Shown here in pieces: positions 3,202 through 44,504 of a stretch of 64,000 nt of DNA; the first letter of the stretch is position 1; the number at the start of each line of letters is the position of its first letter. Below the pieces are notes generated by a model. That model made no database searches. It worked only from the letters and a program-made list of their open reading frames with translations, and was not told the origin of the DNA. Source of the DNA: an uncultured delta proteobacterium (GTDB lineage: Bacteria; Desulfobacterota; Syntrophia; Syntrophales; Smithellaceae); NCBI GenBank assembly GCA_963753975.1, contig CAVWEH010000002.1:1-64000 (forward strand), read 5' to 3'. The translations under genes were made by a program, and so were the position numbers.

Positions 3202-3315
3202 CTTCCTGTAATCCACAAACCAACAACATCTACTAAAATGCTGGACTTCAATCCGTTATCAATGAGGCTGTGTATTTTCATATTTTAAAAAAAGGAGATT
3301 GTGATAAACTAATAT
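3202..3315 (+). repeat. Cassette leader repeat, copy A (right half of junction plus about 110-nt conserved leader)
   Basis: CTTCCTGTAA followed 45 nt from its start by TTCAATCCGTTATCAATGAGGCTGTGTATT; same gap-free spacing at 4108 and 42355. Confidence 0.8.
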
Positions 3316-3334
3316 TTACATTTACGGGGTAATA

Positions 3335-4006
3335 ATGCGACCAAAAAAAGTTCAATACAATATTAATAAATTGCCTCGGATGGCTATTGCATCTTTCAAG
3401 AACGCAATACGTCTACACGAAGATGCCATTTTGTTATTCAAAAAAAACAGAATCCCATCTGCACTTCACACCACTATATTATCGATTGAAGAGCTTGGAA
3501 AATACGGCATTTATGAACATGTATGGTATCACAGCAGAGTCGATCCGTATTTACAGAGCATCGAAGAGCTTCAAAGAGATTTGCTTAGTTCCTATTCTCA
3601 TTCAAAAAAGCAAATGTGGTTCTTATCTGACTGGGATGAACCTTATTCCTCTAAACTTCTTTACCGAATACTTAAATATGGTGACCTTGAAAAAATCAAA
3701 CAACAGGCAACATATGTTGGAATCCCCAAAAAAGGGAAAAACATAGATTTCAAAAAGCGAATGACGTCTCCTTTTCGCGCATCAAAAAAGATGGCAGAGA
3801 AACTTATCACTTTAGTAAACGACTACATTATCGTTATGGCAATTGGTATTCGAAAAAGCTATTACGAGCTTGATATTGATGAGATAGATGACTGGCTGGC
3901 ACAAAAGGAAGTCGAGGACCATTTTGTTAACCTTTGGCCGATAATGCAACCTTCAGCCAAGAGATTCGTTGATGAAGCACGCAAACATGAAGATGCAAAA
4001 AGATAG
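3335..4006 (+). CDS. AbiV-family (HEPN) abortive infection-like protein
   Basis: NAIRLHEDAILLF...ILSIEELGK, H-SKKQ and KQQATYVG motifs typical of AbiV/HEPN_AbiV proteins. Confidence 0.75.
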   Translation: MRPKKVQYNINKLPRMAIASFKNAIRLHEDAILLFKKNRIPSALHTTILSIEELGKYGIYEHVWYHSRVDPYLQSIEELQRDLLSSYSHSKKQMWFLSDWDEPYSSKLLYRILKYGDLEKIKQQATYVGIPKKGKNIDFKKRMTSPFRASKKMAEKLITLVNDYIIVMAIGIRKSYYELDIDEIDDWLAQKEVEDHFVNLWPIMQPSAKRFVDEARKHEDAKR

Positions 4007-4082
4007 TGCGAACCATCACTTCAAGTATAACGTCATTCAATCAGTAATCTTTGGCTTATTTATTCTTGTTGCCGTCGGAAAC

Positions 4083-4226
4083 TTGTAGGTGTTTTCAGCA
4101 AGCACTTCTTCCTGTAATCAGTAAAATATTAATTTCTCTGAAAATACAAGATTTCAATCCATTATTATTGAGGCTGTGTATTTATCTCTTTTAAAAATAA
4201 TAAATATTGCTATTATAATATTAAAT
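4083..4226 (+). repeat. Full 37-bp junction (4083-4119) plus leader repeat, copy B
   Basis: TTGTAGGTGTTTTCAGCAAGCACTTCTTCCTGTAATC is identical to 43223-43259; the downstream leader is homologous to copies A and C. Confidence 0.9.
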
Positions 4227-4280
4227 TCTATAGAGGGAAAATGAACTTCGGATATTGATTGTTGAAAGGAGAACAGTGAA

Positions 4281-5549
4281 ATGAAATCAATAAAACCTAT
4301 CATTTGCTTTGTTGCGCTTTTGGTGCTTCCAAGTGTAAGTTGGGGAACTGATTACACAGGTATTTGGAAGGGTGATTGTTCAGATTTTTTTGGAGTGCAA
4401 ATCAAACCCGCTGAGAATCAACTGTATTCCGTATCTTTTTGTGCGCTCCATGGTTGCGACAAGCCCGGAAATTGGACACCGAATACACGCATTGAAGGAG
4501 ACCCGAAATATAAAGTTATTTCTCCTAGTGAACTTGGAATAAAACGCGAAGATGAAGGGTACTTCTTCTACAAAAAATGCACGAGTGACCCCGCATGGAT
4601 TGTTGCTGAGCCTAAAAGAACCCCGCCTGTGCCATGCTACACAATCGGCAAGACGCACTCGACCGGATTAAAAGACACAACCTTGATAGCGCTACTAGTA
4701 GTTAAGGAAGATTTACTTAAAAACAAAATACATGATGAGATTTTACTCATCGGCAAATATTCCCACGGCAAGTATGATGTTGTTAGTCGATGGGATGATA
4801 ATAAAAAAGTGGAAATATCTGAAAGAAAAGATTTGCTTCAAGCTCACAACAAATACATCGTGTATCAAAATGGAAAATCTATCAAGGAATCAGTTATTAA
4901 TAAAATATGTAAGGCTGGGTATGAATGCAGTGCTATTGACATTGGCTGCGGTCAAACCACATCATTGACGACAACAACAAAGAAAGTGAAAGGAAGGCTA
5001 GAGAAAGAATATCAGGGTTTCAACAATGGGATAGATTTCAAGGAGAGGACATCTGCATTTGTTGCGCTTAACAGCGATGCTCCAGCTGCTAAAAAGCAGA
5101 AAGCGTCTATCATGATAGAGGAGACACCTCAGGCCGTCATTGTGAAGATTTCAGAATATGTTAAAAAGGTAATTTTAAAAGATCAGCCTAATTTAAATGC
5201 ACGAGACGTTAAAATAAGCCAATTGCTCGCTTTTAAACTGACAAGAGATGACTCAGTCCAGTATGTTGTTGAAGCAAAAGCAGAAAACGAAAAAATTAAG
5301 GTATCTGGAATTTACATTCTTCAGTTAATCAAAACTAATATTAAGGAACTGTTCTCAGTAAAAGAGAGCAATGACCCAGAAAGTTGGGGCAATGGTTATA
5401 GTTTCCTGGATGCTTTGGATATTGATGGTGACGGAATACCAGAGTTAATATTTGAAGTTCGTGGGTATGAATCGACAGGATACCGAATATATCATTTAGA
5501 AAAAGATGGCTACAAGCAAGTATTCGATGACGTGATATCAGGTTGCTAA
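4281..5549 (+). CDS. Secreted hypothetical protein, Cys-rich N-terminal module, C-terminal FG-GAP-like Ca-binding motif
   Basis: 422 aa ORF, RBS AAAGGAG, signal peptide, DIDGDGIPELI motif. Confidence 0.7.
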   Translation: MKSIKPIICFVALLVLPSVSWGTDYTGIWKGDCSDFFGVQIKPAENQLYSVSFCALHGCDKPGNWTPNTRIEGDPKYKVISPSELGIKREDEGYFFYKKCTSDPAWIVAEPKRTPPVPCYTIGKTHSTGLKDTTLIALLVVKEDLLKNKIHDEILLIGKYSHGKYDVVSRWDDNKKVEISERKDLLQAHNKYIVYQNGKSIKESVINKICKAGYECSAIDIGCGQTTSLTTTTKKVKGRLEKEYQGFNNGIDFKERTSAFVALNSDAPAAKKQKASIMIEETPQAVIVKISEYVKKVILKDQPNLNARDVKISQLLAFKLTRDDSVQYVVEAKAENEKIKVSGIYILQLIKTNIKELFSVKESNDPESWGNGYSFLDALDIDGDGIPELIFEVRGYESTGYRIYHLEKDGYKQVFDDVISGC

Positions 5550-5643
5550 GATTGGGCTCTAATTGTTGCTAGTCTAATATTTTTCTGTCATCATTTGATA
5601 GAGTGTGTAGATCACCCATTTCAAACACAAATCATTAAAATAC

Positions 5644-5671
5644 TTATTTACCATATTTGTTTCTTTGTAGG
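5644..5671 (+). repeat. Left half of junction closing islet 1
   Basis: TTATTTACCATATTTGTTTCTTTGTAGG matches 43202-43229 at 23/28 positions and ends in TTGTAGG. Confidence 0.6.
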
Positions 5672-5778
5672 CGAAATAAATAACTGATACAGGACTTAGT
5701 GGGCACTCTTGCTTGTTGTTTGGTGCAATATTGACGTTTTGGGGAGCAGTTAGAAAAAGTAAATAATAGGGATAATAT

Positions 5779-6666
5779 ATGGGAAAGCTTATGTTTTATA
5801 TCGTGGATGTTTTTGCGGAACAAAAATATGCCGGAAATCAATTGGCTGTGTTTCGCGGCGGGGCGAAGCTTTCGCCAGAGCAAATGCAATCGCTTGCCCG
5901 CGAGATGCATTTTTCAGAAACGACCTTCATTACATCGGAAGAAAAGCACGAGGGCGGTTATGATGTCCGTATTTTTACACCAGAATCAGAAGTTCCCTTC
6001 GCCGGTCATCCCACTTTGGGGACTGCCCATATCATTCGCAGTGAAATAGCAACTGATGCTCCAAGAGAAGTAGTATTAAATTTAAAAGTTGGGCCAATAC
6101 CGGTTACATTCAAACAAGAGAAAAACGGCACTATAGGTTGGATGAAACAGATCAATCCTGAATTCGGGAAAAATATTGATGCTAACCTCATTGCTGACGT
6201 ATTGAGACTTAGACGATCGGAGATAGATGAACTCTTTCCGGTTGAAGAAGTATCAACAGGGTTGCCGCATATCATCGTTCCTCTAAAAACACTGCTTTCA
6301 TTAAAAAGAGCTCATGTGAACAAAGAAAAATATTTTAATCTCATCAAAAATACGTGGGCGAAACCAATTTTGATTTTTTGTCCTGAATCACATCAGGGAT
6401 TGGATAATATCAGCGTGCGCATGTTTGCCGATTGTTATGGAATACCCGAGGATCCCGCCACAGGCAGCGGCAATGGTTGTCTTGCCGCTTATTTGGTGAA
6501 ACATCGTTACTGGGGGAAAAATGAAATTGATATTCGCTCGGAACAAGGTTATGAAATTAATCGTCCTTCTCTTTTATATTTAAAAGCTCAAGAAATTAAT
6601 GGTAAAATCGATGTGCATGTCGGCGGTAAATCAATCACTATTGCTAAGGGCGAATTTTTACCATAA
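5779..6666 (+). CDS. PhzF family isomerase
   Basis: VDVFAE..YAGNQLAV, FSETTF, EVPFAGHPTLG and EDPATGSGNG motifs. Confidence 0.93.
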   Translation: MGKLMFYIVDVFAEQKYAGNQLAVFRGGAKLSPEQMQSLAREMHFSETTFITSEEKHEGGYDVRIFTPESEVPFAGHPTLGTAHIIRSEIATDAPREVVLNLKVGPIPVTFKQEKNGTIGWMKQINPEFGKNIDANLIADVLRLRRSEIDELFPVEEVSTGLPHIIVPLKTLLSLKRAHVNKEKYFNLIKNTWAKPILIFCPESHQGLDNISVRMFADCYGIPEDPATGSGNGCLAAYLVKHRYWGKNEIDIRSEQGYEINRPSLLYLKAQEINGKIDVHVGGKSITIAKGEFLP

Positions 6667-6844
6667 TATTAAGAGTAATTTTCGTTAAAATTTTTCCTTG
6701 GTATAGTAATTAAAAAATGTTATTGACTGCCGGTAATTATAATCAAGGACTATCTTGATTTAAAAAATCATTTTAAAATAAAGCAATTAATTTATTAAGA
6801 AAAAACCGTACCTACGGAAAAATAATAGAAGAAAGGAATTTGTT

Positions 6845-8026
6845 ATGAGAGAAGTTGTAATTGTTAGCGGTGTCAGAACAGCAATTGGAGATTATATGGG
6901 GTCGCTTTCGAGCCTGACTCCTGTACAGTTAGGCGTGACGGTTTTAAAGGCGGCCATCGCTAAGGCCGGTATTGACAAAAACCTGGTTCAGGAAGTGATT
7001 GCCGGTCAGTGCAACCAGGCCGGCGCGCCGGGAAACAGCGCCCGTCACATTGCTATGGGTGCGGAACTGCCGGTCGAGTCCTTCGCTTTTACGGTTCACC
7101 AGCAGTGTCCCTCTTCCATGCGCGCCTCCGAATTACTTTCACAGGAAATTATGCTGGGCAAAATTGACATCGGCGCAGTGGTCGGCATTGAAAGCATGAG
7201 CAACGCCCCCTATCTGCTCTTCGGCGCCCGCAAGGGTTATCGTCTGGCTGATGGTGAAAAGATTCAGGACAGTTTGATGATCGGCGGTCTGGTCGATGCG
7301 CTCTTGGGCTATCACATGGGTATCACGGCGGACAATATTGCCGACCAGTACAAAATTTCCCGCCAGGAGCAGGATGAATGGGCTCTGATGAGCCATCAGA
7401 GAGCCTGCGCCGCCATTAAAAAGGGCTGGTTCAAAGATGAGATCGTTCCGGTGGAAGTCAAAACTAAAAAAGGCCCGGCTATAATCGATAGGGATGAACA
7501 TCCCAGAGAAGACACCAACATGGAAGCCCTGGGCAAACTGAAACCCGCTTTCAAAAAAGATGGTACCGTTACCGCCGGCAACGCTTCCGGCCTGAACGAC
7601 GCGGGTTCCTGTATGATCATGATGGCTGCCGACACAGCCAAGAAAATGGGTATTAAACCCATCGCCAGAGTAGTTGCTTCCGCCCCCGGCTCCGTTGAGC
7701 CCCGCATCATGGGTATGGGCGTTGTTCCGGCTGTACGAAATGCCCTAAAATTCGCCAATATGAAGCAGGAGCAGATTGATTATTTTGAATTCAATGAAGC
7801 TTTTGCCGCTCAGATCATTGGCTGCAACCGTGAGTTGAAGATTAGTCTGGACAAAATCAATGCCGTCGGTTCCGGCATCAGCATGGGCCATCCGGTCGGC
7901 GCAACCGGCGCCAGGTTGATCATCACCATGATTAATGAAATGAAGCGGCGCGGCGTAAAATATGGTTGTGCTTCTCTTTGCGCCAGCGGTGGTCCCGGTC
8001 ACGCGTTTATCGTTGAATCCATTTAG
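6845..8026 (+). CDS. Acetyl-CoA C-acyltransferase (thiolase)
   Basis: VRTAIG, catalytic Cys in QCPSS, TAGNASGLNDAG, NEAFAAQ, GHPVGATGA, C-terminal CASGGPG. Confidence 0.96.
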   Translation: MREVVIVSGVRTAIGDYMGSLSSLTPVQLGVTVLKAAIAKAGIDKNLVQEVIAGQCNQAGAPGNSARHIAMGAELPVESFAFTVHQQCPSSMRASELLSQEIMLGKIDIGAVVGIESMSNAPYLLFGARKGYRLADGEKIQDSLMIGGLVDALLGYHMGITADNIADQYKISRQEQDEWALMSHQRACAAIKKGWFKDEIVPVEVKTKKGPAIIDRDEHPREDTNMEALGKLKPAFKKDGTVTAGNASGLNDAGSCMIMMAADTAKKMGIKPIARVVASAPGSVEPRIMGMGVVPAVRNALKFANMKQEQIDYFEFNEAFAAQIIGCNRELKISLDKINAVGSGISMGHPVGATGARLIITMINEMKRRGVKYGCASLCASGGPGHAFIVESI

Positions 8027-8040
8027 GTTATAAATTGAAA

Positions 8041-8078
8041 AATCCATCCCCGCAGCTTTATGCCGCGGGGAGGGATAT
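8041..8078. terminator. Hairpin between convergent thiolase and yjbQ (probable bidirectional terminator)
   Basis: ATCC-ATCCCCGCAGC-TTTAT-GCCGCGGGGA-GGGAT. Confidence 0.55.
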
Positions 8079-8079
8079 A

Positions 8080-8499
8080 TTACTCGCCGATTATCTTGAC
8101 CAAAACTCTTTTCTTTCTTTTGCCGTCAAATTCTCCGTAAAAAATTTGTTCCCAGGGACCAAAATCAAGCTTGCCTTTGGTAACAGCTGCCACCACTTCC
8201 CGCCCCATTATTTGCCTTTTTAAATGCGCATCACCGTTTTCTTCGCCAGTTCTATTATGGAGGTAGCGGGAGATAGGTTCATGGGGAGCAATTTCCTCGA
8301 GCCAGCGGTCATAATCATGATGCAGGCCGGATTCATCATCGTTAATGAATACGGATGCCGTAATGTGCATGGCGTTTACCAGTACCAACCCTTCCTGAAT
8401 GGCACTTTTTTTTATGCTCTCTTCCACTTTTGTCGTTATGTTGACAAAGCCTCTGCGGCCGGGAACATTAAACCAGTACTCTTCGCGATAAGATTTCAT
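8080..8499 (-). CDS. yjbQ: YjbQ/UPF0047 family protein (secondary thiamine-phosphate synthase)
   Basis: [42 protein letters not shown]. Confidence 0.92.
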
Positions 8500-8671
8500 G
8501 ATTTAATTCCTTTTTTTCTTCGACCATACCCAATCAAAATTTGATTGTCAAAATAAAAAGAGAAAAAGGAACGTCTTCGCCCGGTTAAAAGTTGTAAATA
8601 ACTTTACAAGCTTATTGCCTTGTGTTATTAGGCAAAAAAAATTATAGTTATAACGTTTCAGGAGAAAGAAT

Positions 8672-9421
8672 ATGTCCGGCCATTCCAAATGGAGTACGAT
8701 CAAGAGGAAAAAGGGGGCTATTGACGCCAAGCGCGGGAAGATATTTACGAAAATTATCAAAGAAATAACCTTAGCGGCAAGACTTGGTGGCGGCGATATT
8801 GAAGGTAACGCGCGTCTCAGACAAGCGGTTCTGGCGGCTAAGGAAGAAAACATGCCTAAAGATAATATCGAAAGGGCGATTAAAAAGGGAATCGGCGGCG
8901 GTGAAGGTGCGGCCAATTATGAAGAAGTGACTTATGAAGGTTACGGTCCCAGTGGAGTGGCGGTTCTCGTTGAAGTCATGACGGACAACAAAAATAGAAC
9001 TGTGGCGGAAATTAGGCATATCTTTTCCAAGCATGGCGGAAATCTTGGCGAAAACGGATGTGTAGCCTGGATGTTTGCTAAAAAAGGCAGTATTGTTATT
9101 GATCAGAAGGCAATTGATGAAGACACCTTGATGGAGCTTGCTTTGGATGCAGGGGCTGAAGACGTCAAGAGCGAAGATGACGAATATGAGGTAATTACAG
9201 CTGCTGCCTCCTTCGAAGCGGTAAAAAAAGCTATTGACGATAAAGGCATAAAACATCTGGAAGCACGTATCGGAATGATTCCTTCCACAACAGTGAAATT
9301 GGAGGCAAATAAAGCGGAACAAATGTTGAAAATGATGGAAAAGCTTGAGGATAATGACGATGTACAAAATGTCTATGCCAATTTCGATATTGATAAAGAT
9401 GTGATGGAAAAATTAAGCTAA
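8672..9421 (+). CDS. yebC: YebC/PmpR family protein
   Basis: [33 protein letters not shown]; directly upstream of ruvC. Confidence 0.97.
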
Positions 9422-9451
9422 AATTCAAACCATTCTTATACGGAATAAAAA

Positions 9452-9931
9452 GTGAGAATTTTAGGAATTGACCCCGGCAGCCATGTTACCGGTTACGGCG
9501 TTATTGAAAAAGACGGCAATTATTTGCGGCATATAATTCATGGCGAGGTCAAACCGCAAAAAGATTCAACCTTATCGGCGATATTAATTTCCATCCACCG
9601 GCAGATATCTCAAATCATTGCCCAGACGGCTCCTCAAGCTATTGCACTGGAGAATATTTTTTACGGGAAAAATGTACGCAGTTTGATTAAGCAGGCGCAA
9701 GTAAGGGGCGTCGTTATATTTGCCGGCGCAGACAAAGGCATATTAATTTTTGAATATGCGCCTTTGGAAGTGAAAAAAGCCGTGGTCGGTTATGGACGTG
9801 CCGAAAAAAGACAAGTACAGTCAATGGTTAAAGCGATTTTAAAACTTCCTGTTTTGCCTCCGGCGGATGCTGCCGACGCTCTGGCGGCGGCAATCTGTCA
9901 TGCTAACTTCTTAAAGGAGCAAACAATCTGA
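9452..9931 (+). CDS. ruvC: Holliday junction resolvase RuvC
   Basis: ILGIDPGS, VKKAVVGYGRAEK, DAADALAAAICH. Confidence 0.97.
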   Translation: MRILGIDPGSHVTGYGVIEKDGNYLRHIIHGEVKPQKDSTLSAILISIHRQISQIIAQTAPQAIALENIFYGKNVRSLIKQAQVRGVVIFAGADKGILIFEYAPLEVKKAVVGYGRAEKRQVQSMVKAILKLPVLPPADAADALAAAICHANFLKEQTI

Positions 9932-10539
9932 TGATTGCCTTGATCAGCGGAAAAATTGTTTATAAGGGCATTTCCCATGTCGTTATCGATGCCCATGGTG
10001 TTGGTTATCGTGTTTTTATTCCTTTGACGACTTTTTATGAACTGCCTGAAGCGGGACAAATCATAACATTGCATATTCATACCCATGTCAAGCAGGATGC
10101 CATCAATTTATTTGGTTTTTACACTGTTCAAGAACGGGATCTTTTCCAATTAATGCTCTCCGTTAACGGCATTGGACCAAAGATGTCCATGAATATTCTT
10201 TCCGGTATTTCGGTGCAGGAAATGTTACGCGCCATATCCGGCGGAGATGTAAGGAAACTGATCAGTATCCCCGGGTTAGGTAAGAAGTTGGCTGAACGCT
10301 TGATTCTGGAGTTAAAGGAAAAAATTGTAAAGAAAATGATGGCCGAAGAGGTGCCGGCGATGGACGGTCAGCAAAAAATAAATGAAATTATCAGGGAAGA
10401 TGTTCTTTCTGCCTTGATCAATTTAGGGTATAAAAGTAATGTCGCTCAGGATGCGTTAAACAAAGTATTATACACATCGGCACAGGAGTTGGCGATGGAT
10501 CAACTCTTGAAAAAGACGTTAAAAAGTCTTTCCGGTTAG
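9931..10539 (+). CDS. ruvA: Holliday junction branch migration protein RuvA
   Basis: GVGYRV, LFGF, VNGIGPK, IPGLGKKLAERLILELK, ALINLGY. Confidence 0.97.
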   Translation: MIALISGKIVYKGISHVVIDAHGVGYRVFIPLTTFYELPEAGQIITLHIHTHVKQDAINLFGFYTVQERDLFQLMLSVNGIGPKMSMNILSGISVQEMLRAISGGDVRKLISIPGLGKKLAERLILELKEKIVKKMMAEEVPAMDGQQKINEIIREDVLSALINLGYKSNVAQDALNKVLYTSAQELAMDQLLKKTLKSLSG

Positions 10540-10564
10540 AACGAATCAATAGAAGTGTAATATT

Positions 10565-11594
10565 ATGGATACTCCTATAAAAAATCCTTTAGTCAATCCC
10601 GGCTGCAACGAAGATGAATATAGATTCGATGCTAATTTGCGTCCGATAAAATTAAATGATTATGTAGGGCAGGAAAAAATCAAGAGTAACTTAAAAATAT
10701 TTATTGAGGCGGCGAAAAAACGTCGTGAGGCGCTTGATCATGTTCTTTTGCATGGTCCGCCGGGCTTAGGAAAAACTACTTTGGCTTATATTATTGCCAA
10801 GGAAATGGGTGTGGAAATCAAAGTCACTTCCGGACCGGTTATTGAAAGGCCGGGAGATTTGGCGGCGATTTTGACCAATATGCAAGAACAGGAAGTTCTT
10901 TTTATTGACGAAATCCACAGGCTTTCGCATGTAGTTGAAGAAATATTATATCCGGCCATGGAAGATTTCCATATTGATATTTTAATCGGACAGGGTCCGT
11001 CGGCAAGATCAATGAAACTGGATATACCTAAATTTACTTTGGTCGGTGCAACGACTCGTGCCGGACTTTTGACTTCTCCCTTACGCGACCGTTTCGGCAT
11101 GCATTTTCGCTCTGGAGTTTTATTCGCCGCAGGAACTGGCCGTAATTATAAAGAGATCCGCCTCAATCTTGGGAATAAAACTTGCGTCGGCGGGTGCAGA
11201 AGAATTGGCCAAACGCGCGCGCGGAACACCGCGCATTGCCAATCGATTGCTCAAGCGTGTGCGGGATTATGCTGAAGTAAAATCAGATGGAACAATTGAT
11301 GCAAAAATAGCGCATAGAGCACTGGATGCTTTTGAAGTTGACCAGAAGGGATTTGATCAAATGGACAGGAAACTACTCTTGACTTTGATTGAAAAATTCA
11401 ACGGAGGACCTGTAGGGGTGGAGAGCCTCTCTGCGGCGATGGGCGAGGAGAAGACGACGATTGAAGATGTATATGAGCCGTATTTGATTCAGGAAGGTTA
11501 TGTACAAAGAACGGCAAGAGGGCGGATCGCCTCCGCCAAGGCCTATGAACATTTTGGTCTAAAAGTTTCCAACGGCCAGAAAGAGTTTTTTTAA
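10565..11594 (+). pseudogene. ruvB: RuvB helicase split by a 1-nt insertion near 11111 (real frameshift or assembly error)
   Basis: [11 protein letters not shown] and FIDEIHRL in 10565-11275; [16 protein letters not shown] in 11169-11594; removing one base in CGC-T-CTGGAGTTTTAT restores RLEFY. Confidence 0.9.
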
Positions 11595-11631
11595 GCTAAA
11601 GCGGTTTTTTTGTCAAGGCAAAGTACCCACC

Positions 11632-35403: not shown

Positions 35404-35549
35404 TTTTATATGCCATAATTAACGTGACATGACAATGCTGCATTTGATTCCAGTATATCGCGGAGTTTGTTTTATAAGTGGTTATTGAGAAAAAAGAATG
35501 GCTATGATAAATTAACATTCCTTATCAAATTCTATAAGGACTCTCTGAT

Positions 35550-36341
35550 ATGCAGGATATTTTAAGCAAGGTTCATGTACACATGCCGTTTCATCTTTTG
35601 CCTCAATATCAGGAAACCATTCTCCGGCAGAGGTTGAATCCGGAAATTTATTTTAGTCACTCTGCGTTGCAGAATTTAGATAAAGCACAATGTACAGAAA
35701 CAGCAAAGCTGTTTTCTGCTGCCGGCTTAAAGATCACTTTTCATGCCCCATTTATGGATTTACGCCCCGGAGCGCTGGATGATAAAATCCGGCAGACAAG
35801 CCTTGATAGAATAAAACAGATATTCGATCTGGCGCCCTATTTCCAACCGTTAAGAATAGTTTGCCATGCTTCTTTTGATGACCGGTATTATGTTGATTGC
35901 GACGATTTATGGCTGGAGAACAGCATTAAAACCTGGACAGAGATGATTGCCCTGGCTAATGATGCTAAAACAATTATTGCCTTGGAAAATGTCTATGAAA
36001 AAAATCCGCATATTCTGCGCCGTCTTTTCGATGCGCTGTCTTCGGATAGTATTTGTTTTTGCTTGGATACGGGACATTTTAACGTGTTTTCTTATGCACC
36101 GCTAAACATTTGGCTTCAGGAGCTGGGGAAATATTTAGGCCAGTTGCATTTACACGACAATCATGGATTGACTGATGAGCACCTGCCGGTCGGCAGCGGA
36201 AGTTTTCCTTTTGCTGAGCTCTTTCAATCTTTAAAGAAAAATAAGATTCATCCGCTAATAACATTGGAGGCTCACGCGCAAGATGATCTTTGGCAGTCGC
36301 TCACGAACATCAAAAGCATGGCCTTATTTGATTATATTTGA
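35550..36341 (+). CDS. Sugar phosphate isomerase/epimerase (AP endonuclease 2 TIM barrel)
   Basis: HAPFMDL, ALENV, CLDTGH, LHLHDNHG..DEHL. Confidence 0.88.
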   Translation: MQDILSKVHVHMPFHLLPQYQETILRQRLNPEIYFSHSALQNLDKAQCTETAKLFSAAGLKITFHAPFMDLRPGALDDKIRQTSLDRIKQIFDLAPYFQPLRIVCHASFDDRYYVDCDDLWLENSIKTWTEMIALANDAKTIIALENVYEKNPHILRRLFDALSSDSICFCLDTGHFNVFSYAPLNIWLQELGKYLGQLHLHDNHGLTDEHLPVGSGSFPFAELFQSLKKNKIHPLITLEAHAQDDLWQSLTNIKSMALFDYI

Positions 36342-36385
36342 TTGTTATTTATTTGGACAATAAAAAATCTGGTTAGGGAATCAGC

Positions 36386-37360
36386 GTGCTTCAATATATT
36401 ATAAAAAGATTAATTTTTATGATCCCGCTTTTACTGGGGATTACAATTATTTGTTTTTTTGTTATGCGTCTGGCTCCCGGCTCGCCGACCGATCTGCAGA
36501 CCCAAATGAATCCAAAATCTTCCGTGGAAATGAAAGAACGCCTCAGGACATTATATGAACTGGATAAACCCATTTATGCGCAGTATTGGTCGTGGCTGAA
36601 AAAGATCAGTCGTGGAGATTTGGGAATATCTTTTTCCTCCGACCTCCGTCCGGTTGCCGCTAAAATTACGGAGCGGCTGCCCATTACCATCATTCTGGAA
36701 TTCTTATCTCTCTTAATTATTATTGGCGTTGCTATACCCATAGGAGTGCTTTCCGCCGTCCATCAGGATTCTCTTTTCGACAAAATCACCGGCGTATTCG
36801 TATTTATCGGTTTTGCCGTTCCCACATTCTGGTTGGCTTTATTGCTGATGATATTTTTTGGCATTCAACTCGGCTGGCTGCCCATTTCCGGTTTACGTTC
36901 CTTAAACTATGAATACCTGACCCCTTGGATGCAATTCGTCGATTTGGCCAAACATTTAGTCTTGCCCGTGTTCATATCCGCCTTTGGCGGATTAGCCGGC
37001 CTTTCCCGTTATATGCGTGCGAATATGCTGGAAGTAATTCGACAGGATTATATTATGACTGCGCGGGCTAAAGGTTTGAGTGAAAGAGCTGTTATTTACA
37101 GACATGCATTGCGCAATGCGCTTTTGCCGGCCATAACGATTTTAGGACTTTCCATTCCGGGCCTCATCGGCGGCAGTGTAATTTTCGAGACAATATTTGC
37201 AATTCCGGGTATGGGACAGCTTTTCTATATGGCGGTTATGGCGAGAGATTACCCGACGGTTATGGGTATTCTGCTCATTGGCGCTATTTTAACGCTTTTA
37301 GGAAATTTAATTGCTGATGTATCTTACGCCGTGGCTGATCCGCGTATTCGCCTATCGTAA
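36386..37360 (+). CDS. Peptide ABC transporter permease (OppB/DppB-like)
   Basis: [39 protein letters not shown]. Confidence 0.93.
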
Positions 37361-37465
37361 ATAGAGCTGAAAAATGAACCCGGCATGCGCCGGGCAGGCA
37401 GTTGGGTAAGTTTTTAATGAAACTATAGATACTTCAAGATAGAACTTTTTCAAGGTACTGTAGCA

Positions 37466-38293
37466 ATGAACTTCTGGGAAATGTTTTATAAAAACAAATT
37501 AATGCTCGCCGGTAGCGGGATTGTTTTAATGTTTTTTCTCATTTCGTTTCTGGCGCCGTGGCTCGCGCCTTATGATTTCGGGCAAATCGATTTGACTAAT
37601 GTTCTGGCTTCTCCTTCGGCCGGCCATTTATTCGGAACTGATCAGCTGGGGCGGGACGTGCTTTCCCGGATGATTTGGGGTGCAAGGATTTCCTTGAAAG
37701 TCGGTTTTGCGGCTACCGGTGTGGCCATCATTATCGGAACAATTCTGGGAGCCGTTTCCGGTTATTACGGCGGCTGGATTGACGCGGCTATCATGCGGTT
37801 TGTGGACGTCATGCTGTGTTTCCCGACATTTTTTCTGATTCTGGCGGTAATCGCTTTTTTAGAGCCTTCTATCTGGAACATTATGATAATTATCGGTTTG
37901 ACCGGATGGATGGGCGTCACGAGGCTGGTCAGGGCCGACTTTATTACGCTGAAGGAAAGGGACTTTGTTCAAGCCGCGAGAGCAATAGGAGCAAACGATT
38001 TGCGGATTATTTTTCTTCATATCCTCCCTAATGCCTTTGCCTCGATTTTAGTAGCCGCAACATTAGGTATTGCCGGAGCGATACTTACGGAATCAGCCTT
38101 GAGCTTTTTAGGCATAGGCGTGCAGCCGCCGACGCCCAGTTGGGGCAACATTTTGACTGCCGGAAAAGACAACATAGATATCGCCTGGTGGCTTTCCTTG
38201 TATCCGGGGCTGGCCATATTACTTACAGTTGTCGGTTATAATCTTTTGGGAGAGGGCATCAGGGATTCACTTGATCCGCGATTAAGGAAGTGA
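37466..38293 (+). CDS. Peptide ABC transporter permease (OppC/DppC-like)
   Basis: HLFGTDQLGRD, ESALSFLGIG, PSWG, GEGIRDSLDPR. Confidence 0.93.
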   Translation: MNFWEMFYKNKLMLAGSGIVLMFFLISFLAPWLAPYDFGQIDLTNVLASPSAGHLFGTDQLGRDVLSRMIWGARISLKVGFAATGVAIIIGTILGAVSGYYGGWIDAAIMRFVDVMLCFPTFFLILAVIAFLEPSIWNIMIIIGLTGWMGVTRLVRADFITLKERDFVQAARAIGANDLRIIFLHILPNAFASILVAATLGIAGAILTESALSFLGIGVQPPTPSWGNILTAGKDNIDIAWWLSLYPGLAILLTVVGYNLLGEGIRDSLDPRLRK

Positions 38294-38324
38294 TTTTAGT
38301 ATTTCGATAAACAATATGTTTATC

Positions 38325-38894
38325 TTAATAAATGAATTGGCTTATATTTTTTTTGTCCGGGAAGGAAAGAGCCAGATGATGTCTCTGGTAATTATCCCTC
38401 CATTTACGCAGTATTTTTCCTTCTATATCAATTTCATCGTTTTCAAAAATGAATCTCACCTTAACAACAGCCCCAATTTCATATTCTTCATCACCCTCGT
38501 ATAAGATGATATGGGTACCGATGCACGATATATCTATGACCTGACTTTCCTTTTCCTGGCAATAAACGCGGACATTCGGAAGTAAATCCAAGCGAATTCT
38601 CGGCCACATTCTCAAATCACAAGGCGCCGGATCGTTTAATTTACGCAGGATAATTCGGGAGTCCGATGTAATAGCCTTAATTCTCGCTTCAAAACCCAGA
38701 CGGCCGGAGTTGGCGGCATTTTTTTGGTAAGTCAAAAGAACGATATGGTTTAAGTAACCGTTTTCAATAGGTTGTTGAGTTTGCTCAATTGCAAAATAAT
38801 CGTTCGACAAAAGTTGAATAAGCCGAGATTTACGAATGTCTTTTCCTTCCAAGAGCAAACATATTTCTTCCGATGGTTCAATGTCCAGCCGCAT
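38325..38894 (-). CDS. PilZ domain-containing protein
   Basis: RMWPR (RxxxR) and DISCIG (DxSxxG) in the C-terminal half. Confidence 0.75.
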   Translation of the reverse strand: MRLDIEPSEEICLLLEGKDIRKSRLIQLLSNDYFAIEQTQQPIENGYLNHIVLLTYQKNAANSGRLGFEARIKAITSDSRIILRKLNDPAPCDLRMWPRIRLDLLPNVRVYCQEKESQVIDISCIGTHIILYEGDEEYEIGAVVKVRFIFENDEIDIEGKILRKWRDNYQRHHLALSFPDKKNISQFIY

Positions 38895-38927
38895 TAGCGA
38901 TTATCTTTCTCCTACTTTAGTATTAAT

Positions 38928-39458
38928 TTAGAATAAAAAAGGAACCAACATCTTTGATTTTCTGGTATAGGAGGCATAGTCATCTCCGAATTTAAGTAGA
39001 TTTTCCTTTTCTTCGGAAAGGGCTGTAGCGTAAACAAATACTAGGGAGACGGCAAACAGGCTTAAAGCCAAAAGTGAAGGATTTTTTAATAAAAAGCCTG
39101 CACCAAGAAATATTAGCGAACTATAAAGAGGATGGCGAACGTATTTATATGCTCCCGATGTTATCAGAGCAGTAGTTGTTTCAATGTTGGCCAAGCTCGC
39201 GGGTTGGCCCCGGTGAATAAGGAGGTAGAAGCCGGGAAGAGCTAAAAGGAGGGAAATTATTATTAATCCCCAGGAAATTATTTGAAAACCGGAAAAAGGC
39301 TTATGAAACCAGTAACTGCTGTTGACTAAAATTAAAATTAGGAGAAACTCAAAGGCAAAAAACCGATAAAACTTTCGACTGCCTGTATCGAATAAAGCGG
39401 GCCAGGAAATTTTGATAAATATTATCGAAACGACAAAAAATATGATAAGTTTAGTCAT
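38928..39458 (-). CDS. Isoprenylcysteine carboxyl methyltransferase family membrane protein
   Basis: LITSGAYKYVRHPLYS, EEKENLLKFGDDY..Y. Confidence 0.88.
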   Translation of the reverse strand: MTKLIIFFVVSIIFIKISWPALFDTGSRKFYRFFAFEFLLILILVNSSYWFHKPFSGFQIISWGLIIISLLLALPGFYLLIHRGQPASLANIETTTALITSGAYKYVRHPLYSSLIFLGAGFLLKNPSLLALSLFAVSLVFVYATALSEEKENLLKFGDDYASYTRKSKMLVPFLF

Positions 39459-39756
39459 AATTGAGCCTCTTTTCAATCAACGAACATAAAATTACCACAG
39501 AGGATATTTGTCTATTTGTTATTTTTAAAATTTGCGGATAATTTTCATGTCCATAGGTATATTTAATTATTAAAAAAACAAGCTTTATAGCAGCAACGAC
39601 ACTATATTTGTTATGGTATTTAACGAAAAGGTTCGTCCGTGTCAAGGTGTTTCCCGTGATAAGTGCTCCGAGGTTTACGTCTTGAGGCTTGATAAATTTG
39701 AAGAAATGTAATAGAAGTCCGCTCGTTCAATTAAGTGTAGAAGGAGAAAGCGTAAC

Positions 39757-39924
39757 ATGTCCAAAAAAGTTAAAGCGGAATTACTTAACCTCGATAAACG
39801 TATTCTTTCCCGCAAGTTATTATCCGGTGAAATATCCGAAAAGGATTTGCAGAGTTTATTAAAAAAAATCCCCGATGTCGCGGAAAATGCCGAGGAAGTC
39901 AGTATCGAAGAAAATGAAAAATAA
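39757..39924 (+). CDS. Small hypothetical protein (55 aa) missed by the ORF track
   Basis: RBS AAGGAG; MSKKVKAELLNLDKRILSRKLLSGEISEKDLQSLLKKIPDVAENAEEVSIEENEK; stop 6 nt before tatD. Confidence 0.75.
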   Translation: MSKKVKAELLNLDKRILSRKLLSGEISEKDLQSLLKKIPDVAENAEEVSIEENEK

Positions 39925-39930
39925 TTTTTT

Positions 39931-40707
39931 ATGCTGATTGATTCCCACGCTCATCTGGAGATGAAAGAGTTCGATTGCGACCGTGAGGAAGTGATCAAGC
40001 GTGCTAAACAGGCGGGAATCGATTTCATTGTTACCATCGGCACAAATCTGGAACTGAGTAAGAAAGCTGTTGCTCTTGCCTACAAGTACGAAAATATTTA
40101 CGCAACAATCGGTATCCATCCCCATGATGTAGTTAACGCTGATAATAAAACTTTCGATAATCTCCGCGAACTTGCCCGCCGGAAAAAAGTTGTCGCCTAT
40201 GGCGAAATCGGATTGGATTTTTTTCGCAATATTTCACCTCCCGAAAAACAATTGGATATGTTTGGCCGTCAGCTCGAATTAGCTAATGAACTGAAATTGC
40301 CGGTGATTATCCATGATCGCGAAGCCCATGAACAAACGCTAAAGATGGTCAGGGCCTCGGGCATTCACCGCGGTGTATTTCACTGTTTTTCCGGCGACTA
40401 TGATATGGCCCAAAAATGTATAGACTTGGGCTTCTATATTTCCGTGCCCGGCGTCGTGACTTTTGATAAGGCAAAAAATATTCGGGATGTCGCGCAGCGT
40501 GTACCTCTTTCTTCATTATTCTTGGAGACGGATGCGCCATTTCTTGCCCCTGTTCCGCACCGAGGTAAAAGAAACGAACCTTCCTTTATTATCCATACGG
40601 CAAAAAAAGTAGCGGAGCTTAAAGGCGTGTCTCTGGGGGAAGTAGTCCAAGCCACGACCAAAAACGCCAAAAGTCTTTTCCATATTGAAACTTCCGGCAG
40701 TAAATAG
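39931..40707 (+). CDS. tatD: TatD family hydrolase
   Basis: IDSHAHL, GIHPH, GEIGLD, IHDREA, HCFSG, ETDAPFL. Confidence 0.96.
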
Positions 40708-40742
40708 TAGCGTATTTTCCCAATAATCCAATAAGTGTCAGG

Positions 40743-41441
40743 ATGATGAAAGATAAACCGAAAGCTGTAGTTTTATTAAGCGGCGGTATCGATTCCACCA
40801 CGACATTGGCTGTCGCCAAAAATTTGGGGTTTGCCGTTTATGCCCTAAGCTTCGGGTACGGTCAGCGCCACGAAGTGGAATTGGAAGCAGCCTCCCGTAT
40901 TGCCCGGCATTTTGACGTAGTCGAACATTTGATTGTCGATATTGATCTGCGCCGCATCGGTGGTTCAGCCTTAACAGCAGATATTGCAGTTCCTAAAAGC
41001 CGCAGCATTAAGCAAATGGGAAAAGAAATTCCCGTAACTTATGTGCCGGCGCGCAATACCATATTTCTTTCCTACGCTCTGGCCTGGGCCGAAACGGTAG
41101 GGGCATTTGATATCTTTATCGGCGTTAATGCTCTGGACTATAGCGGCTATCCTGATTGCCGTCCCGCGTACATTGAAGCTTATGAAAAAATGGCCAATCT
41201 CGCCACGAAGGTTGGAGTGGAAGGAAAGCAAAAAATAAAAATTCACACGCCGCTTATCAAGATGACCAAAGCGCAGATTATCCAAAAAGGAATGGAACTC
41301 GGTGTTGATTATAGTCAGACACACAGCTGTTATGATCCATCGGTTGAAGGCGTCGCCTGCGGCCAATGTGATTCCTGTATCCTGCGTTTAAAAGGTTTTG
41401 CAGAGGCGGGCATTAAAGACTTCATCAGATATAAAATCTAA
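40743..41441 (+). CDS. queC: 7-cyano-7-deazaguanine synthase
   Basis: [30 protein letters not shown]...CGQCDSC. Confidence 0.97.
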
Positions 41442-41451
41442 AAGGTTAACT

Positions 41452-42278
41452 TTGAGCTATTTGGTCAAAGAAATATTTTATTCTATTCAAGGCGAGGGTT
41501 TTCATTCCGGACGTCCGGCGGTCTTTTGCCGGTTTTCCGGCTGCAATTTATGGTCGGGAAAAGAAGTCGACCGGAAAAAAGCAGTTTGTAAATTTTGTGA
41601 TACTGATTTTGTAGGTGTTGGTGGACGTGAAGGCGGGCATTTTCAGAGTTCAGGAGAATTGGCAAAAAAGGTCAGGCAATTTTGGCCGCAAAAAGATTTG
41701 AAATCGGCACAGCCTTTTGTTGTCTGCACGGGTGGTGAGCCGCTCCTGCAACTGGATGCCGAGTTGATCGCCGCGTTGCATGATGAAGGTTTTAAAATTG
41801 CTGTGGAGACCAACGGCACGATCATGCCGCCGTCTGGTATCGATTGGATTTGCGTGAGTCCTAAAGCCAGAGCTGAATTGTTGTTGCGTTCAGGCCACGA
41901 GTTAAAATTGATCTTCCCGCAGTGGGGTGGGGAGCCGAAAAAATATGATCAGCTTGATTTCCAGCACTTTTTTTTGTTAAAATTGCTGTGGAGACCAACG
42001 GCACGATCATGCCGCCGCCTGCTATTGATTGGATTTGCGTGAGTCCTAAAGCCGGAGCTGAATTGTTGTTGCGTTCAGGCCACGAGTTAAAACTGGTCTT
42101 TCCGCAAAAGGGTGCGGAACCGGAAAAATATGATCAACTTGATTTCCAGGACTTTTTTTTGCAGCCAATGGATAACTCCGATCGTGAAGCGAACATACAA
42201 AGAGCATTGGATTATGTCCTTGCCCATCCGCAATGGCGGATTAGTCTGCAGTTGCATAAAATATTGGGAGTAAAATAA
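41452..42278 (+). pseudogene. queE: 7-carboxy-7-deazaguanine synthase QueE interrupted by a 185-bp internal tandem duplication (frameshift)
   Basis: EIFYSIQGEG, CNLW...CKFCDTDF, TGGEPLLQ, ETNGT; the C-terminal LQLHKILG lies in another frame. Confidence 0.9.
41792..42161 (+). repeat. Imperfect tandem duplication, 2 x 185 bp
   Basis: 41792-41976 versus 41977-42161: about 15 substitutions by manual alignment, no indels. Confidence 0.95.
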
Positions 42279-42352
42279 AAAGGAGTAGAGAGACTTTAAT
42301 CACCTTGATCACAATAATTGATCTAGCAGTACTTATCAGCGAAGCTACGGAA

Positions 42353-42475
42353 TTCTTCCTGTAACAAACAAATCGTCAACGTCGATGAATATACAAGATT
42401 TCAATCCGTTATCAATGATGCCGTGTAATTCTCTTTTTAAAAAAAATGTTACATGCTATTATGATATCCAAATTG
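42353..42475 (+). repeat. Cassette leader repeat, copy C
   Basis: TTCTTCCTGTAA...ATACAAGATTTCAATCCGTTATCAATGATGCCGTGTAA...TTTTAAAAA...TGCTATTAT. Confidence 0.85.
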
Positions 42476-42519
42476 TCAAAAAATAAAGTTTGTATATTAA
42501 TTGTTAGTCTGCAAATTAG

Positions 42520-43187
42520 AAGCAACGAGAGGCAACACGGTTTTGGAATGCTCTGAAACGCGTATTAACTGTTCTGATAATATGTTGGGCTGCTATAACT
42601 TTCATTGGCACCCTCATGCCACTACCGGATGAGTTGCAATTCTTCGCAAAGCTGCCCAACAGGCTTCGCTGGTTGCCCTTATTTGTCCTTTTGTTCGGTT
42701 TGTCGGCGCTCAAATATCCGCGTTATTTATCTTGGAATGGACTTAAGGATCTGCTGAGAATTGGTGCTCTTGAGCGCGTGGTAATTGGTATTTCCTTGGC
42801 GTGACGGGCTCGGCTGATCCGTCGGATACGAGAATCATCGGATTTCAGCTCCAAGGGTTCAATAATTCATTACAAACGATGGCAGCAGTACATGCAAAAT
42901 TAATTCTTCCCAACGGAAGAGAAGTACCGTTGGTCGTGACGACCTCCGACGGCAGCATGGACAATGCTGTGAATGTTGATATTGCTCATAGAACCAGGAT
43001 TTACATTAATGGACGGTTCGGCGAATTGAAGCCGAACGATTTGATTGCCACTTATGGCCACTACGTTTTGAGTTCACATGGCGCAATGGTGAGTCTAAGC
43101 TTAAATTCTCTCGACGAGAGATCGATAAGCAGATCCGTCGTTTCGAGAACGATACTAAACCTAAACCGGATACCTTCTGACAATTAA
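42520..43187 (+). pseudogene. Fragmented hypothetical gene(s): membrane segment then soluble segment
   Basis: Hydrophobic frame (RFWNALKRVLTVLIICWAAITFIGTL...) with no good start, ending at 42804; second frame 42801-43187. Confidence 0.45.
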
Positions 43188-43201
43188 CACTCAAAAATAT
43201 T

Positions 43202-43259
43202 TTATTAATCATAATCGTTGCTTTGTAGGTGTTTTCAGCAAGCACTTCTTCCTGTAATC
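43202..43259 (+). repeat. Full 37-bp junction copy (43223-43259) with upstream half-site extension
   Basis: Exact match to 4083-4119. Confidence 0.9.
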
Positions 43260-43431
43260 TTGTTTTTTACATTTTTGTTCCACAATAGAACCTTTCGAGC
43301 AGAAATCATTAGAAAAGATACTTTCACAAGACTTTTCTTCGGTTGACATGCGCAACATTTATTGATAGGGAAATCGCGTTATGTATCATAAAGACAAAAT
43401 TAATTGTGATCAATAATAGGAGGAAAACATA

Positions 43432-44223
43432 ATGAAAAAAATCATTGTGGTATTTTTGTGTCTGTCGTTATTCTTTTTCGCATCATGTGCTGGATCAAAA
43501 ATTATATCTGAACCAAAGATTACTTTTCCCCTAAATTCAAACCAAAATCTAATAGGTGATTTATCGAAACCGGAAGGCGATGGCCCCTTTCCTGCGGTTA
43601 TACTACTTCCTGGTTGCGCAGGTGGTCAATACAATATTAGTGATTGGGAAAATATGTTGGTAAAAGAAGGATACGTAGCTTTCGCTGTGGATAGTCTTGG
43701 CCCCAGGGGGGTTAGAAATGTTTGTAGTAATCCAAAAGAGAATAAACCTACTTCTGAGGATAGAGTTTCTGATGCTTTTGCAGCGAAGCGTTACCTCGAA
43801 ACTCGGCCATTTATTGATAAAGAACGAATTGCTTTAATGGGGTTTTCACACGGCGGAATTACTTCATTGATCATAGCCGTGTCTCCATCCTCGGAAAAAC
43901 CTTTCAAGGAAATTATTGCATTTTATCCTTACTGCTTGCCTATAGATCCTTCAAAGAAGTTCCTTTCATCGCCATTGATGATTCTCTCTGGGGGCAATGA
44001 TGACTGGTGCCCAGCTAAGCTGTGCGAAACATACCCTGAGATATTAAAAGGTTTGAACCATGAAATTGTTTTGAAAGTTTATCCAGGAGCCTATCATGCT
44101 TTTGATAATACCCTGCCAGGACTTTTTAATTATATGGGGCATAAAGTAGGTAGAGACGAAAGTGCGGCAGCCGACTCGATTGTCATGGTGAAAAATTTTT
44201 TGCGGAAACACTTCAATGAATAA
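43432..44223 (+). CDS. Dienelactone hydrolase family alpha/beta hydrolase, lipoprotein
   Basis: RBS AGGAGG, lipobox FASC, GPFPAVILL, GFSHGG nucleophile motif, DDWCP, YPGAYHAFD. Confidence 0.9.
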   Translation: MKKIIVVFLCLSLFFFASCAGSKIISEPKITFPLNSNQNLIGDLSKPEGDGPFPAVILLPGCAGGQYNISDWENMLVKEGYVAFAVDSLGPRGVRNVCSNPKENKPTSEDRVSDAFAAKRYLETRPFIDKERIALMGFSHGGITSLIIAVSPSSEKPFKEIIAFYPYCLPIDPSKKFLSSPLMILSGGNDDWCPAKLCETYPEILKGLNHEIVLKVYPGAYHAFDNTLPGLFNYMGHKVGRDESAAADSIVMVKNFLRKHFNE

Positions 44224-44274
44224 GTATGGGCCTGGAATTGCACCCTTAAAGTGAATACTTACATTGATGACTTT

Positions 44275-44312
44275 AAAAAAAGGCAGAACCAGAAATGGTT
44301 TTGCCTTTTTTT
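44275..44312 (+). terminator. Intrinsic terminator
   Basis: AAAAAAAGGCAGAACCA-GAAA-TGGTTTTGCCTTTTTTT. Confidence 0.85.
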
Positions 44313-44474
44313 ATTATCAATATTTCTACCAATAATTCTTGAGTATTCTACGATGTTGATATTACTTAATAACGGGTGTTTTTTCAGTTGACAGATTTCA
44401 GATGAGATTGAGTTAGTCATTATAAGTGTTTCAAATGGTAATCTTCAATTTACTTTTCAAGTAGCATGTGTGAG

Positions 44475-44504
44475 CTTGTAGGTGTAAATATTATTTGCTT
44501 CTTC
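44475..44504 (+). repeat. Degenerate junction closing islet 2
   Basis: CTTGTAGGTGT-N12-CTTCTTC, same spacing as 4082-4111. Confidence 0.55.

Follow-up and report, generated by a model that had tools for sequence, protein, structure and literature searches.

The first 64,000 nucleotides of contig CAVWEH010000002.1 (C2; this whole stretch is called the window below) come from the 2.43-Mb genome, 95% complete, of an uncultured member of the Smithellaceae (assembly GCA_963753975.1; G000), and they hold two islets of accessory genes built around an identical 37-bp junction. We found that this junction belongs to a family of sites that bracket gene modules across the genome and in its relatives, and that the modules make up a real, widespread and apparently undescribed cassette system. 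An earlier note on the window had read the islets as the work of cassette shuffling without attC sites, served in trans by a recombinase encoded elsewhere. Comparison of genomes supports this reading, since shared cargo sits at different loci with different neighbours, homology breaks at the sites, neither attC cores nor target duplications nor the integron integrase IntI were found with them, and no cognate recombinase was found in G000. The modules are almost certainly mobile and bounded by two cores, a and b. As to how they move, the explanation that we favour, with some reserve, is a chromosomal cassette system of the tyrosine-recombinase type, in which like would recombine with like at two incompatible cores, a motif called B would play an accessory part and int279, a recombinase found in relatives, would be the enzyme.

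Two cores that bound alternating modules

The 37-mer is letter-identical at 4083-4119 and 43223-43259 of the window, as had been noted, and 11 copies occur at up to 9 mismatches in the whole genome, a recurrence that exceeds chance. Further copies, sought genome-wide, belong to a family that spans the genome: our final models place 39 right-side and 34 left-side sites, 73 cores in all, in 27 clusters, and in the reversed genome, which served as a control, profile hidden Markov models (HMMs) of both sides gave no match below E 0.78. None of the 73 cores lies inside an open reading frame (ORF) of at least 150 amino acids, though such ORFs cover 77% of the genome. The sites are co-oriented, mixed strands being seen in 2 of the 27 clusters.

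Core b, C-TTCCT-G, opens the right side of a junction (R), and core a, G-TAGGT-G, closes the left side (L), the centres being invariant per position at 91-99% in b and 87-98% in a. All motifs have an arm consensus in common, roughly TAWNNAYTW for the left arm and WAATCAAKA for the right one, so that a site reads as an imperfect palindrome of about 25 bp, with two arms of 9-10 bp around a centre of 5-7 bp. The symmetry of core b peaks about TTCCT (score 0.51, against a median of 0.26 for the tested centres), also among 103 outer sites, while core a is symmetric, weakly (0.42), about the same centre taken as 7 bp. Inverted arms around an overlap of 6-8 bp, with the crossover inside it, are what is generally expected of a tyrosine-recombinase site, and this layout is found here, less clearly for core a. 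A third motif, B, is built alike but has a looser centre. It sits 47 bp inwards in 189 of the 216 R sites and 46 bp inwards in 131 of the 178 L sites, and each core bears an arm of about 60 bp that ends in this palindrome. The partial sites that had been noted at the outer ends of the islets are present, with a length of about 65 bp rather than 10-28 bp, and the junction itself is real and repeated but consists of two cores rather than a single site. The distance between the centres of a and b is 23 bp in 64 of 114 intervals and otherwise 24 bp, 49-70 bp, about 110 bp or the size of a gene. One b core with its R arm is inverted within an array, in a glycosyltransferase region (G000:C2:319855-321346; a single case).

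The interiors of the two sides go with their own core. Of 183 matches to R interiors, 173 come after b, none after a, and 10 are of other kinds; of 106 to L interiors, 99 stand before a, none before b, and 7 are of other kinds. No a/b hybrid was found among them. Two module types alternate, although runs such as bbb are also present: cargo units, which run from b through the R arm, the cargo and the L arm to a, and linkers, which run from a to b. The earlier note had proposed circular units that integrate in tandem; with two distinct crossover cores in the 37-mer, and hence two alternating module types, the smallest circle that could be excised would be a pair of modules. Palindromic, intergenic and often placed in front of genes, the motifs might be taken for transcription-factor operators, or for inert repeats that merely promote homologous recombination. 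We find this barely credible, given that cargo is bracketed on both sides in a fixed order whatever the orientation of the genes, that breakpoints fall in the 5-7-bp centre between flanks at background identity, and that a and b alternate strictly without hybrids.

Relatives have longer arrays in the same head-to-tail order and carry the same cargo at other loci. Among 120 cargo units we found 13 pairs that share cargo, of which 7 differ on both sides and 5 on one side (the other being unknown), 1 keeps one side and none keeps both. For example, the hydrolase unit of islet 2 precedes a phzF-like gene, the position of islet 1, in one relative (G010, 91% identity), and in a metagenome contig (L203, 95%) it stands before another linker and b core. 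One and the same unit can lie beside a linker or beside a chromosomal flank. The arms travel with the cargo: R interiors of shared cargo have a mean identity of 0.79 (24 pairs; background 0.40), as opposed to 0.38 for the upstream flank (25 pairs), and L interiors 0.70 (35 pairs; background 0.45), as opposed to 0.44 for the flank (56 pairs). Homology between loci starts and stops inside TTCCTG and GTAGGTG, that is, within the centres, and linkers, whose sequences are conserved across genomes, can accompany either neighbour. Genome comparison thus establishes, at the level of sequence, the boundaries, the alternation and the shuffling of the modules.

A candidate recombinase and a proposed mechanism

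The recombinases of G000 are XerC, a frame-broken xerD, the integrase of an element at tRNA-Met, two fragments and one IS110 protein; no serine or Y1 enzyme was found in that genome. In relatives, small tyrosine recombinase genes occupy exactly the position of a linker. The one that we single out, int279, encodes a tyrosine recombinase of 279 amino acids whose nearest solved relatives are archaeal XerA proteins (5HXY, 4A8E), to which it aligns over its whole length, with matching domain layout and catalytic motifs and no long insertion. It scores 122 on NF040815 (cut-off 220) and 52.7 on TIGR02249, the IntI model (cut-off 265), and its family comprises 1,669 clusters at E 1e-60 or better.

We looked for sites beside int279 homologs with position weight matrices trained only on the sites of G000, taking b-R within 260 bp downstream. 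With identity of 59% or more, homologs have b-R downstream in 14 of 20 cases (13 of them at 105-124 nt) and L-a upstream in 7 of 19, always co-oriented and in four families, whereas homologs of up to 50% identity have neither (0 of 22 and 0 of 20); the opposite orientation gave none and random windows 0 of 500. G442 has copies of the int279 module on its own (92% identity between them) whose limits are exactly a and b, and at two loci it has a 3.2-kb unit of int279 plus cargo that ends in a cores (96.8%), so that the two products predicted by the model described below are both seen. All of the 15 genomes with an int279 match, among 116 of the family, carry sites. In a sample of 401 genomes of the phylum the close clade occurs in 3 of the 45 site-positive genomes, a fourth carrier, G442, having sites by HMM only; no int279 was found in the viral contigs or plasmids searched. 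On the int279 tree the site-bearing members did not all fall to one side of a branch (6 changes, as against a mean of 12.5 after shuffling), since loci within the clade that are degenerate or truncated score as lacking a site. Judging from this neighbourhood, int279 is probably the dedicated recombinase of the system.

Other enzymes were tried as candidates and set aside. Recombinases of 200 amino acids were ranked as passengers, as in other families none of their 12 loci, spread over 11 genomes, has a site and the strict pattern is missing from those genomes; the tRNA-Met integrase, which stands beside one array, belongs to an integrative element of its own (int, xis, Rep); and other phage-type integrases have sites nearby only sporadically. 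The frame break of xerD lies near codons 125-131 in G000 (C2:602452-603313), G002 and G013, the gene being whole in G011, and may be an assembly indel or real.

From the arrangement of the sites we infer an enzyme, circles and a like-with-like rule. Cargo modules (b, R arm, genes, L arm, a) alternate with linker modules (a to b): the linker of the 37-mer spans 23 bp, those of other families measure about 100-120 bp, and some consist of an entire recombinase gene. Core a would recombine only with a and b only with b, because their centres differ; tyrosine recombinases in general require matching overlaps. The same requirement for matching spacers is stated for pdif sites in the accessible part of PMC13141974. 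A single crossover between like cores would bring a linker-cargo pair in, or release it as a circle whose junction is the full 37-mer, and two crossovers would swap one module, as in a natural recombinase-mediated cassette exchange. Motif B would serve both for accessory binding and as the place at which an arm acquires new cargo; arm families are indeed joined to unrelated cargo just past B, which suggests capture of cargo there. The int279 gene, itself a linker-type module, would be readily lost, leaving orphan arrays as in G000. Islet 2 fits an insertion through b at a chromosomal look-alike because it ends in a, a linker and a degenerate b without an arm, arrays that open with a degenerate a and a linker would reflect insertion through a, and clusters running from a bare b to a bare a could result from double crossover, linker decay or movement of a lone cargo module.

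Such lone movement might instead be the rule. The cargo module would then behave like a tyrosine transposon, with the centres of b and a as its ends, and enter palindromic arm-N5-arm targets, linkers being remnants of adjacent targets and the sites, and probably the enzyme, being the same. Clusters that open with a bare b and close with a bare a (12 of 27), outer flanks that are diverse yet retain an arm-like bias, and identical units beside a linker or a chromosomal flank would all follow. We nevertheless hold it to be unlikely: joined flanks, the empty site that it implies, were found for none of 378 pairs of b...a flanks, within a limited sampling; linkers are conserved across genomes and accompany either neighbour; G442 has an a-to-a unit; and the centres are 91-99% invariant, whereas exchange at mismatched overlaps, of the kind known from Tn916, should scramble them. 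Joined-flank cases for a-a, b-b and linker pairs (6, 15 and 8) were mostly self-matches through similar arms and were not counted. When we compared alleles in relatives, as the earlier note had proposed, neither queE-thiN nor rrf-phzF, nor aspC, yielded a clean empty site; relatives free of sites have other neighbours there. Nor did circle junctions emerge: no circles were observed in the contigs of four sequencing runs compared with the window (shares of only 0.05-0.06, contigs only). Loose contig ends from these runs pile up at 4081-4085, and one joint leads from 5664 back to 4083 with a side of 32 letters; these are most simply the junctions of other organisms, and neither was counted as a circle.

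The finding that conservation ends at B on both sides invites another reading, in which the true element would be B-L-a-int279-b-R-B, similar to an insertion sequence (IS) and ending in B repeats, the 37-mer junctions being its miniature deletion derivatives and the mobility of cargo a by-product of neighbouring copies. Three R-B-L units of 95-97 bp resemble the circle junction of such an element, arm families join different cargo just past B, and one duplicate in G362 stops just after B. Against this, the arms accompany the cargo and not the linker, and int279 modules are bounded at a and b with differing arms outside. The centres of B within one unit are only slightly more alike than chance (0.54 versus 0.50, p 0.009). 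Paired centres are identical no more often than chance (4.2% versus 3.0%, p 0.29), which speaks against B repeats as ends. We regard this reading as very improbable.

Several observations weigh against the like-with-like model with int279 as its enzyme. The pairs compared for arm identity are not independent, the symmetry of core a is weak and, in the outer set, tied with that about other centres, and B was located with a palindromic template, so that its symmetry is partly by construction. The 12 clusters that run from a bare b to a bare a have no direct explanation in single like-with-like crossovers, and the left end of one duplicate of 99% identity in G362 is not close to a site. As for the enzyme, int279 is present in just 15 of the 116 family genomes as opposed to the 90 that carry sites, and it was not found in G000, in G011 (98% complete, 71 sites), in G073 and G089 or in the single-contig G043. 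Two of three homologs at 53-58% identity carry an a-type site in the opposite arrangement, the 200-amino-acid recombinases also lie between a and b in the family, so the linker slot may merely collect passengers, and int279 is flanked by an inverted repeat of its own, unlike the cores. This repeat, of 10-14 bp (L127:1440-1500 and 2340-2400), lies just after a -10-like box and just after the stop codon and is conserved in other families; it may pair in the mRNA, and a regulatory role seems plausible because the gene was not seen inverted in the close clade.

Cargo, range and the islets of the window

The 120 cargo units range from 95 to 6,734 bp (median about 1.4 kb), hold 0-6 genes in either orientation, and include three empty ones, the R-B-L units of 95-97 bp. 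Their cargo comprises HEPN/Abi proteins, LprI, Rap1a, OmpA, OmpH, PilZ, Usp, transporters and enzymes; PADLOC gave no match among 9 cargo proteins. An L-a site is immediately preceded by the gene of an 828-amino-acid nSTAND1 NTPase that has HEAT repeats (L410:4554-7040) and is possibly defence cargo. The ompH gene occurs three times in G000 (C2:435388-436017, C4:223666-224295 and C5:370371-370917), two copies being 99.4% identical and inside units and the third 92.7% identical; one copy begins just past B. A stretch of about 205 bp that starts at an a core and reaches into a radical-SAM gene is duplicated at 90% identity as a linker-type module (G000:C2:435037-435241 and 441314-441518), which suggests that chromosomal DNA was captured beside an array.

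The range of the sites was followed with a strict pattern, b plus B with one mismatch allowed. It matches 90 of the 116 family genomes, the highest counts being 109, 108, 82, 71 and 69 (control: 6 in all), and 45 of the 401 genomes of the phylum sample, in several families (control: 1). In G442, G378 and other genomes these two centres recur in arrays whose linkers measure about 100-120 bp, with none in reversed controls, and named records that match the junction pattern belong mostly to the Smithellaceae or Syntrophaceae; the system is widespread in anaerobic sediment and peat bacteria. Among the viral contigs searched, the junction pattern had no match and the b-arm pattern one. A phage-like contig, with a terminase-like ORF by inspection, has b and an R arm near its end (L396:5001-5058). 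An integrative element at tRNA-Met (G000:C2:536671-544046), with an integrase, a helix-turn-helix excisionase, a small ORF and a rolling-circle Rep, holds a b-a-b-a-b-a array, and related elements in G021 likewise carry sites; the element is a possible vehicle between hosts.

Within the window all features of the islets lie on the forward strand. Islet 1 opens at 3193-3264, as found with profile HMMs and site models, with a b core (centre TTCCT at 3203-3207; the partial site CTTCCTGTAA at 3202 had been noted here) and an R arm ending in B (3240-3264). Its first cargo (3335-4006) encodes a HEPN_AbiV protein of 223 amino acids, in agreement with the AbiV-like gene of the earlier note (PF18728, above cut-off, E 4e-14; no PADLOC match). 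An L arm (4030-4090, B at about 4030-4054) leads to an a core centred on TAGGT (4086-4090), from which the 37-mer (4083-4119) continues through an 18-bp linker module (4091-4108) into a b core, the two centres being 23 bp apart; b (TTCCT, 4109-4113) with its R arm spans 4109-4170 (B at 4146-4170). The second cargo (4281-5549) is a protein of 422 amino acids of no known family. It had been called a secreted protein, and a signal-peptide-like N terminus is seen; neither Pfam nor, above 0.85, the Atlas gave a match. At the right end (5612-5720) stand an L arm (B at 5612-5636), an a core (TAGGC, 5668-5672) and a flank of a type that we call S; the 23/28 identity noted between 5644-5671 and 43202-43229 holds. 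The S-type flank is also found after a cores that precede unrelated genes, its profile having been trained on a-flanks, so that its association with a is circular. The phzF-like gene to the right (5779-6666) has an a core upstream in four relatives, with different cargo.

Islet 2 opens at 42346-42417 with a b core (TTCCT, 42356-42360), where TTCTTCCTGTAA had been noted at 42353, and an R arm (B at 42393-42417). Its cargo (42616-43187), described earlier as a fragmented membrane gene, is not one whole gene: it consists of two short overlapping ORFs of 62 and 128 amino acids, probably a single broken gene. The second 37-mer (43223-43259) lies within 43170-43310, which holds an L arm with a degenerate B, an a core (43226-43230), the linker, a b core (43249-43253) and an R arm whose B is likewise degenerate. 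The dienelactone hydrolase that had been recognized follows at 43432-44223 (PF01738). The right end (44423-44507), noted before as CTTGTAGGTGT-N12-CTTCTTC at 44475, consists of an L arm (B at 44423-44447), an a core (44479-44483), a second type of linker (44484-44501) and a degenerate b core (TTCTC, 44502-44506) without an R arm. Beside this islet, the ORF of queE is split by a tandem duplication of 185 bp (92%) towards the 3' end of the gene (41792-42161), and before thiN we saw a stretch (44620-44815) that we take, from its motif, to be thiamine-riboswitch-like; its insert is longer than in relatives and it does not reach the Rfam gathering score, Rfam matches in the window being to rRNA only.

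Significance and comparison with known systems

To our knowledge, integrons and dif modules are the only well-known natural systems that shuffle cassettes by site-specific recombination, and current tools detect only these. We lean, if slightly, towards a third such system beside them, formed by the int279 clade, two incompatible cores, an accessory capture site and an exchangeable recombinase gene, and amounting to recombinase-mediated cassette exchange in nature. In syntrophic and sulfate-reducing bacteria it would then build, swap and spread modules, with defence, envelope and metabolic cargo, at chromosomal sites that number up to a hundred or more. It would explain a large share of the accessory genome in the Smithellaceae and their relatives, key syntrophs of methanogenic habitats, some of whose genomes have strict site matches above 100, and it would escape IntegronFinder. 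Together with its two cores of 25 bp, orthogonal by nature, the 279-amino-acid recombinase would also offer a tool at hand for cassette exchange. What is new would be the element family, as the chemistry (tyrosine recombination) and the pairing logic (that of dif modules) are already known.

Judged by target duplication, the units are neither an IS nor a MITE, the mean flanking direct repeat of 115 units being 1.34, as against 1.43 +/- 0.18 for shuffled flanks. On inspection, the two ends of a unit show a partial match as inverted repeats, and no transposase was found among the cargo scanned, no genome-wide search for DDE families having been made. Of the marks of IS200/IS605 or REP/RAYT, no hairpin was seen at the sites and no PF01797 in G000, where the single IS110 gene has no site in its locus. 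Relatives hold three serine recombinases, around which no site is clearly recognizable (a weak match to part of one, E 0.32). Engineered Cre/lox cassette exchange, in which heterospecific spacers flank a cassette and permit its swap but not its excision, likewise uses two incompatible centres, whereas the arrangement here is natural, chained in arrays, and has another enzyme and site. From archaeal XerA and other simple tyrosine recombinases int279 differs in falling below the NF040815 cut-off and in being patchy, multi-copy and tied to sites. A survey of tyrosine recombinases, in its accessible part, names no simple subgroup with such a role (PMC8138268), and full-text literature, as far as it was accessible and with thin coverage of subscription journals, held no description of these sites. 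The TnpI/IRS system of Tn4430 resembles ours in having a simple tyrosine recombinase, an inverted-repeat core with nearby accessory motifs of the same 9-bp sequence, and directly repeated sites; as far as the accessible part of PMC2847244 goes, however, the IRS is a single site that serves resolution of a Tn3-family transposon, and its accessory motifs are direct and in tandem, whereas here the accessory motif is palindromic and there are two core types and up to a hundred sites per genome.

Integrons and their integrase-free clusters (CALINs) likewise have tandem, shuffled accessory units, defence and envelope cargo and many arrays without an integrase (PMC8138268, as far as accessible, the rest being general background). 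Here, in contrast, there are two site types, units of 0-6 genes in either orientation, and a recombinase inside the array with units on both sides, without attC cores, hairpin or IntI. The attC core pair, by its general consensus RYYYAAC...GTTRRRY, was present in 1 of 258 site windows, six folds of single strands gave z-scores of -2.21 to +0.21 with no structure common to both junctions, and TIGR02249 had no match above cut-off in any of five genomes. A short IntI-like C-terminal remnant occurs in G000 (C4:123072-123203) and in G011 (L081), in a locus with neither an a/b site nor an attC core pair.

The nearest likeness is to the dif modules of Acinetobacter, of which PMC13141974, in its accessible part, says that two types must alternate, that pairs excise between directly oriented sites with matching spacers and that single modules are exchanged by two crossovers. 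Common to both are the alternating module types and an accessory cargo that comprises one to a few genes, whichever way these are oriented. Host XerC/XerD or another resident recombinase might accordingly act here too, with int279 and the 200-amino-acid recombinases as passengers, and the system would then reduce to a variant of dif modules: besides the shared logic of alternation, site-rich genomes without int279 still have XerC/D, and the 99.4% ompH duplicate in G000 suggests recent movement without int279. We think this distinctly unlikely, as an XerD-arm-like 11-mer, by its general consensus, is close to just 11 of 479 cores (b: 6 of 270; a: 5 of 209; the best centre is 5-7 bp, with another consensus), and the geometry is a direct repeat of about 9-7-9 as opposed to an inverted 11-6-11. 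A strict match is moreover absent from 356 of the 401 phylum and 26 of the 116 family genomes, in all of which XerC/D would be expected, the site tracks one int279 clade over four families, and xerD is frame-broken in G000 and two site-bearing relatives, if not by assembly error. When the host dif was searched for, matches were no more frequent than in the control. As far as the dif modules are described in the accessible part of that paper, the present sites differ in lacking XerC/XerD arms and in being co-oriented instead of inversely oriented around a module (strands are mixed in 2 of 27 clusters), their alternation comes from two invariant centres and not from site inversion, each core has a 60-bp arm and an accessory palindrome, the arrays are chromosomal and dispersed (27 loci in G000), and a recombinase gene, probably a dedicated one, lies in arrays of relatives. 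The system is neither an integron nor a known dif module, and its logic is closest to that of the Acinetobacter dif modules, with other sites and probably another enzyme.

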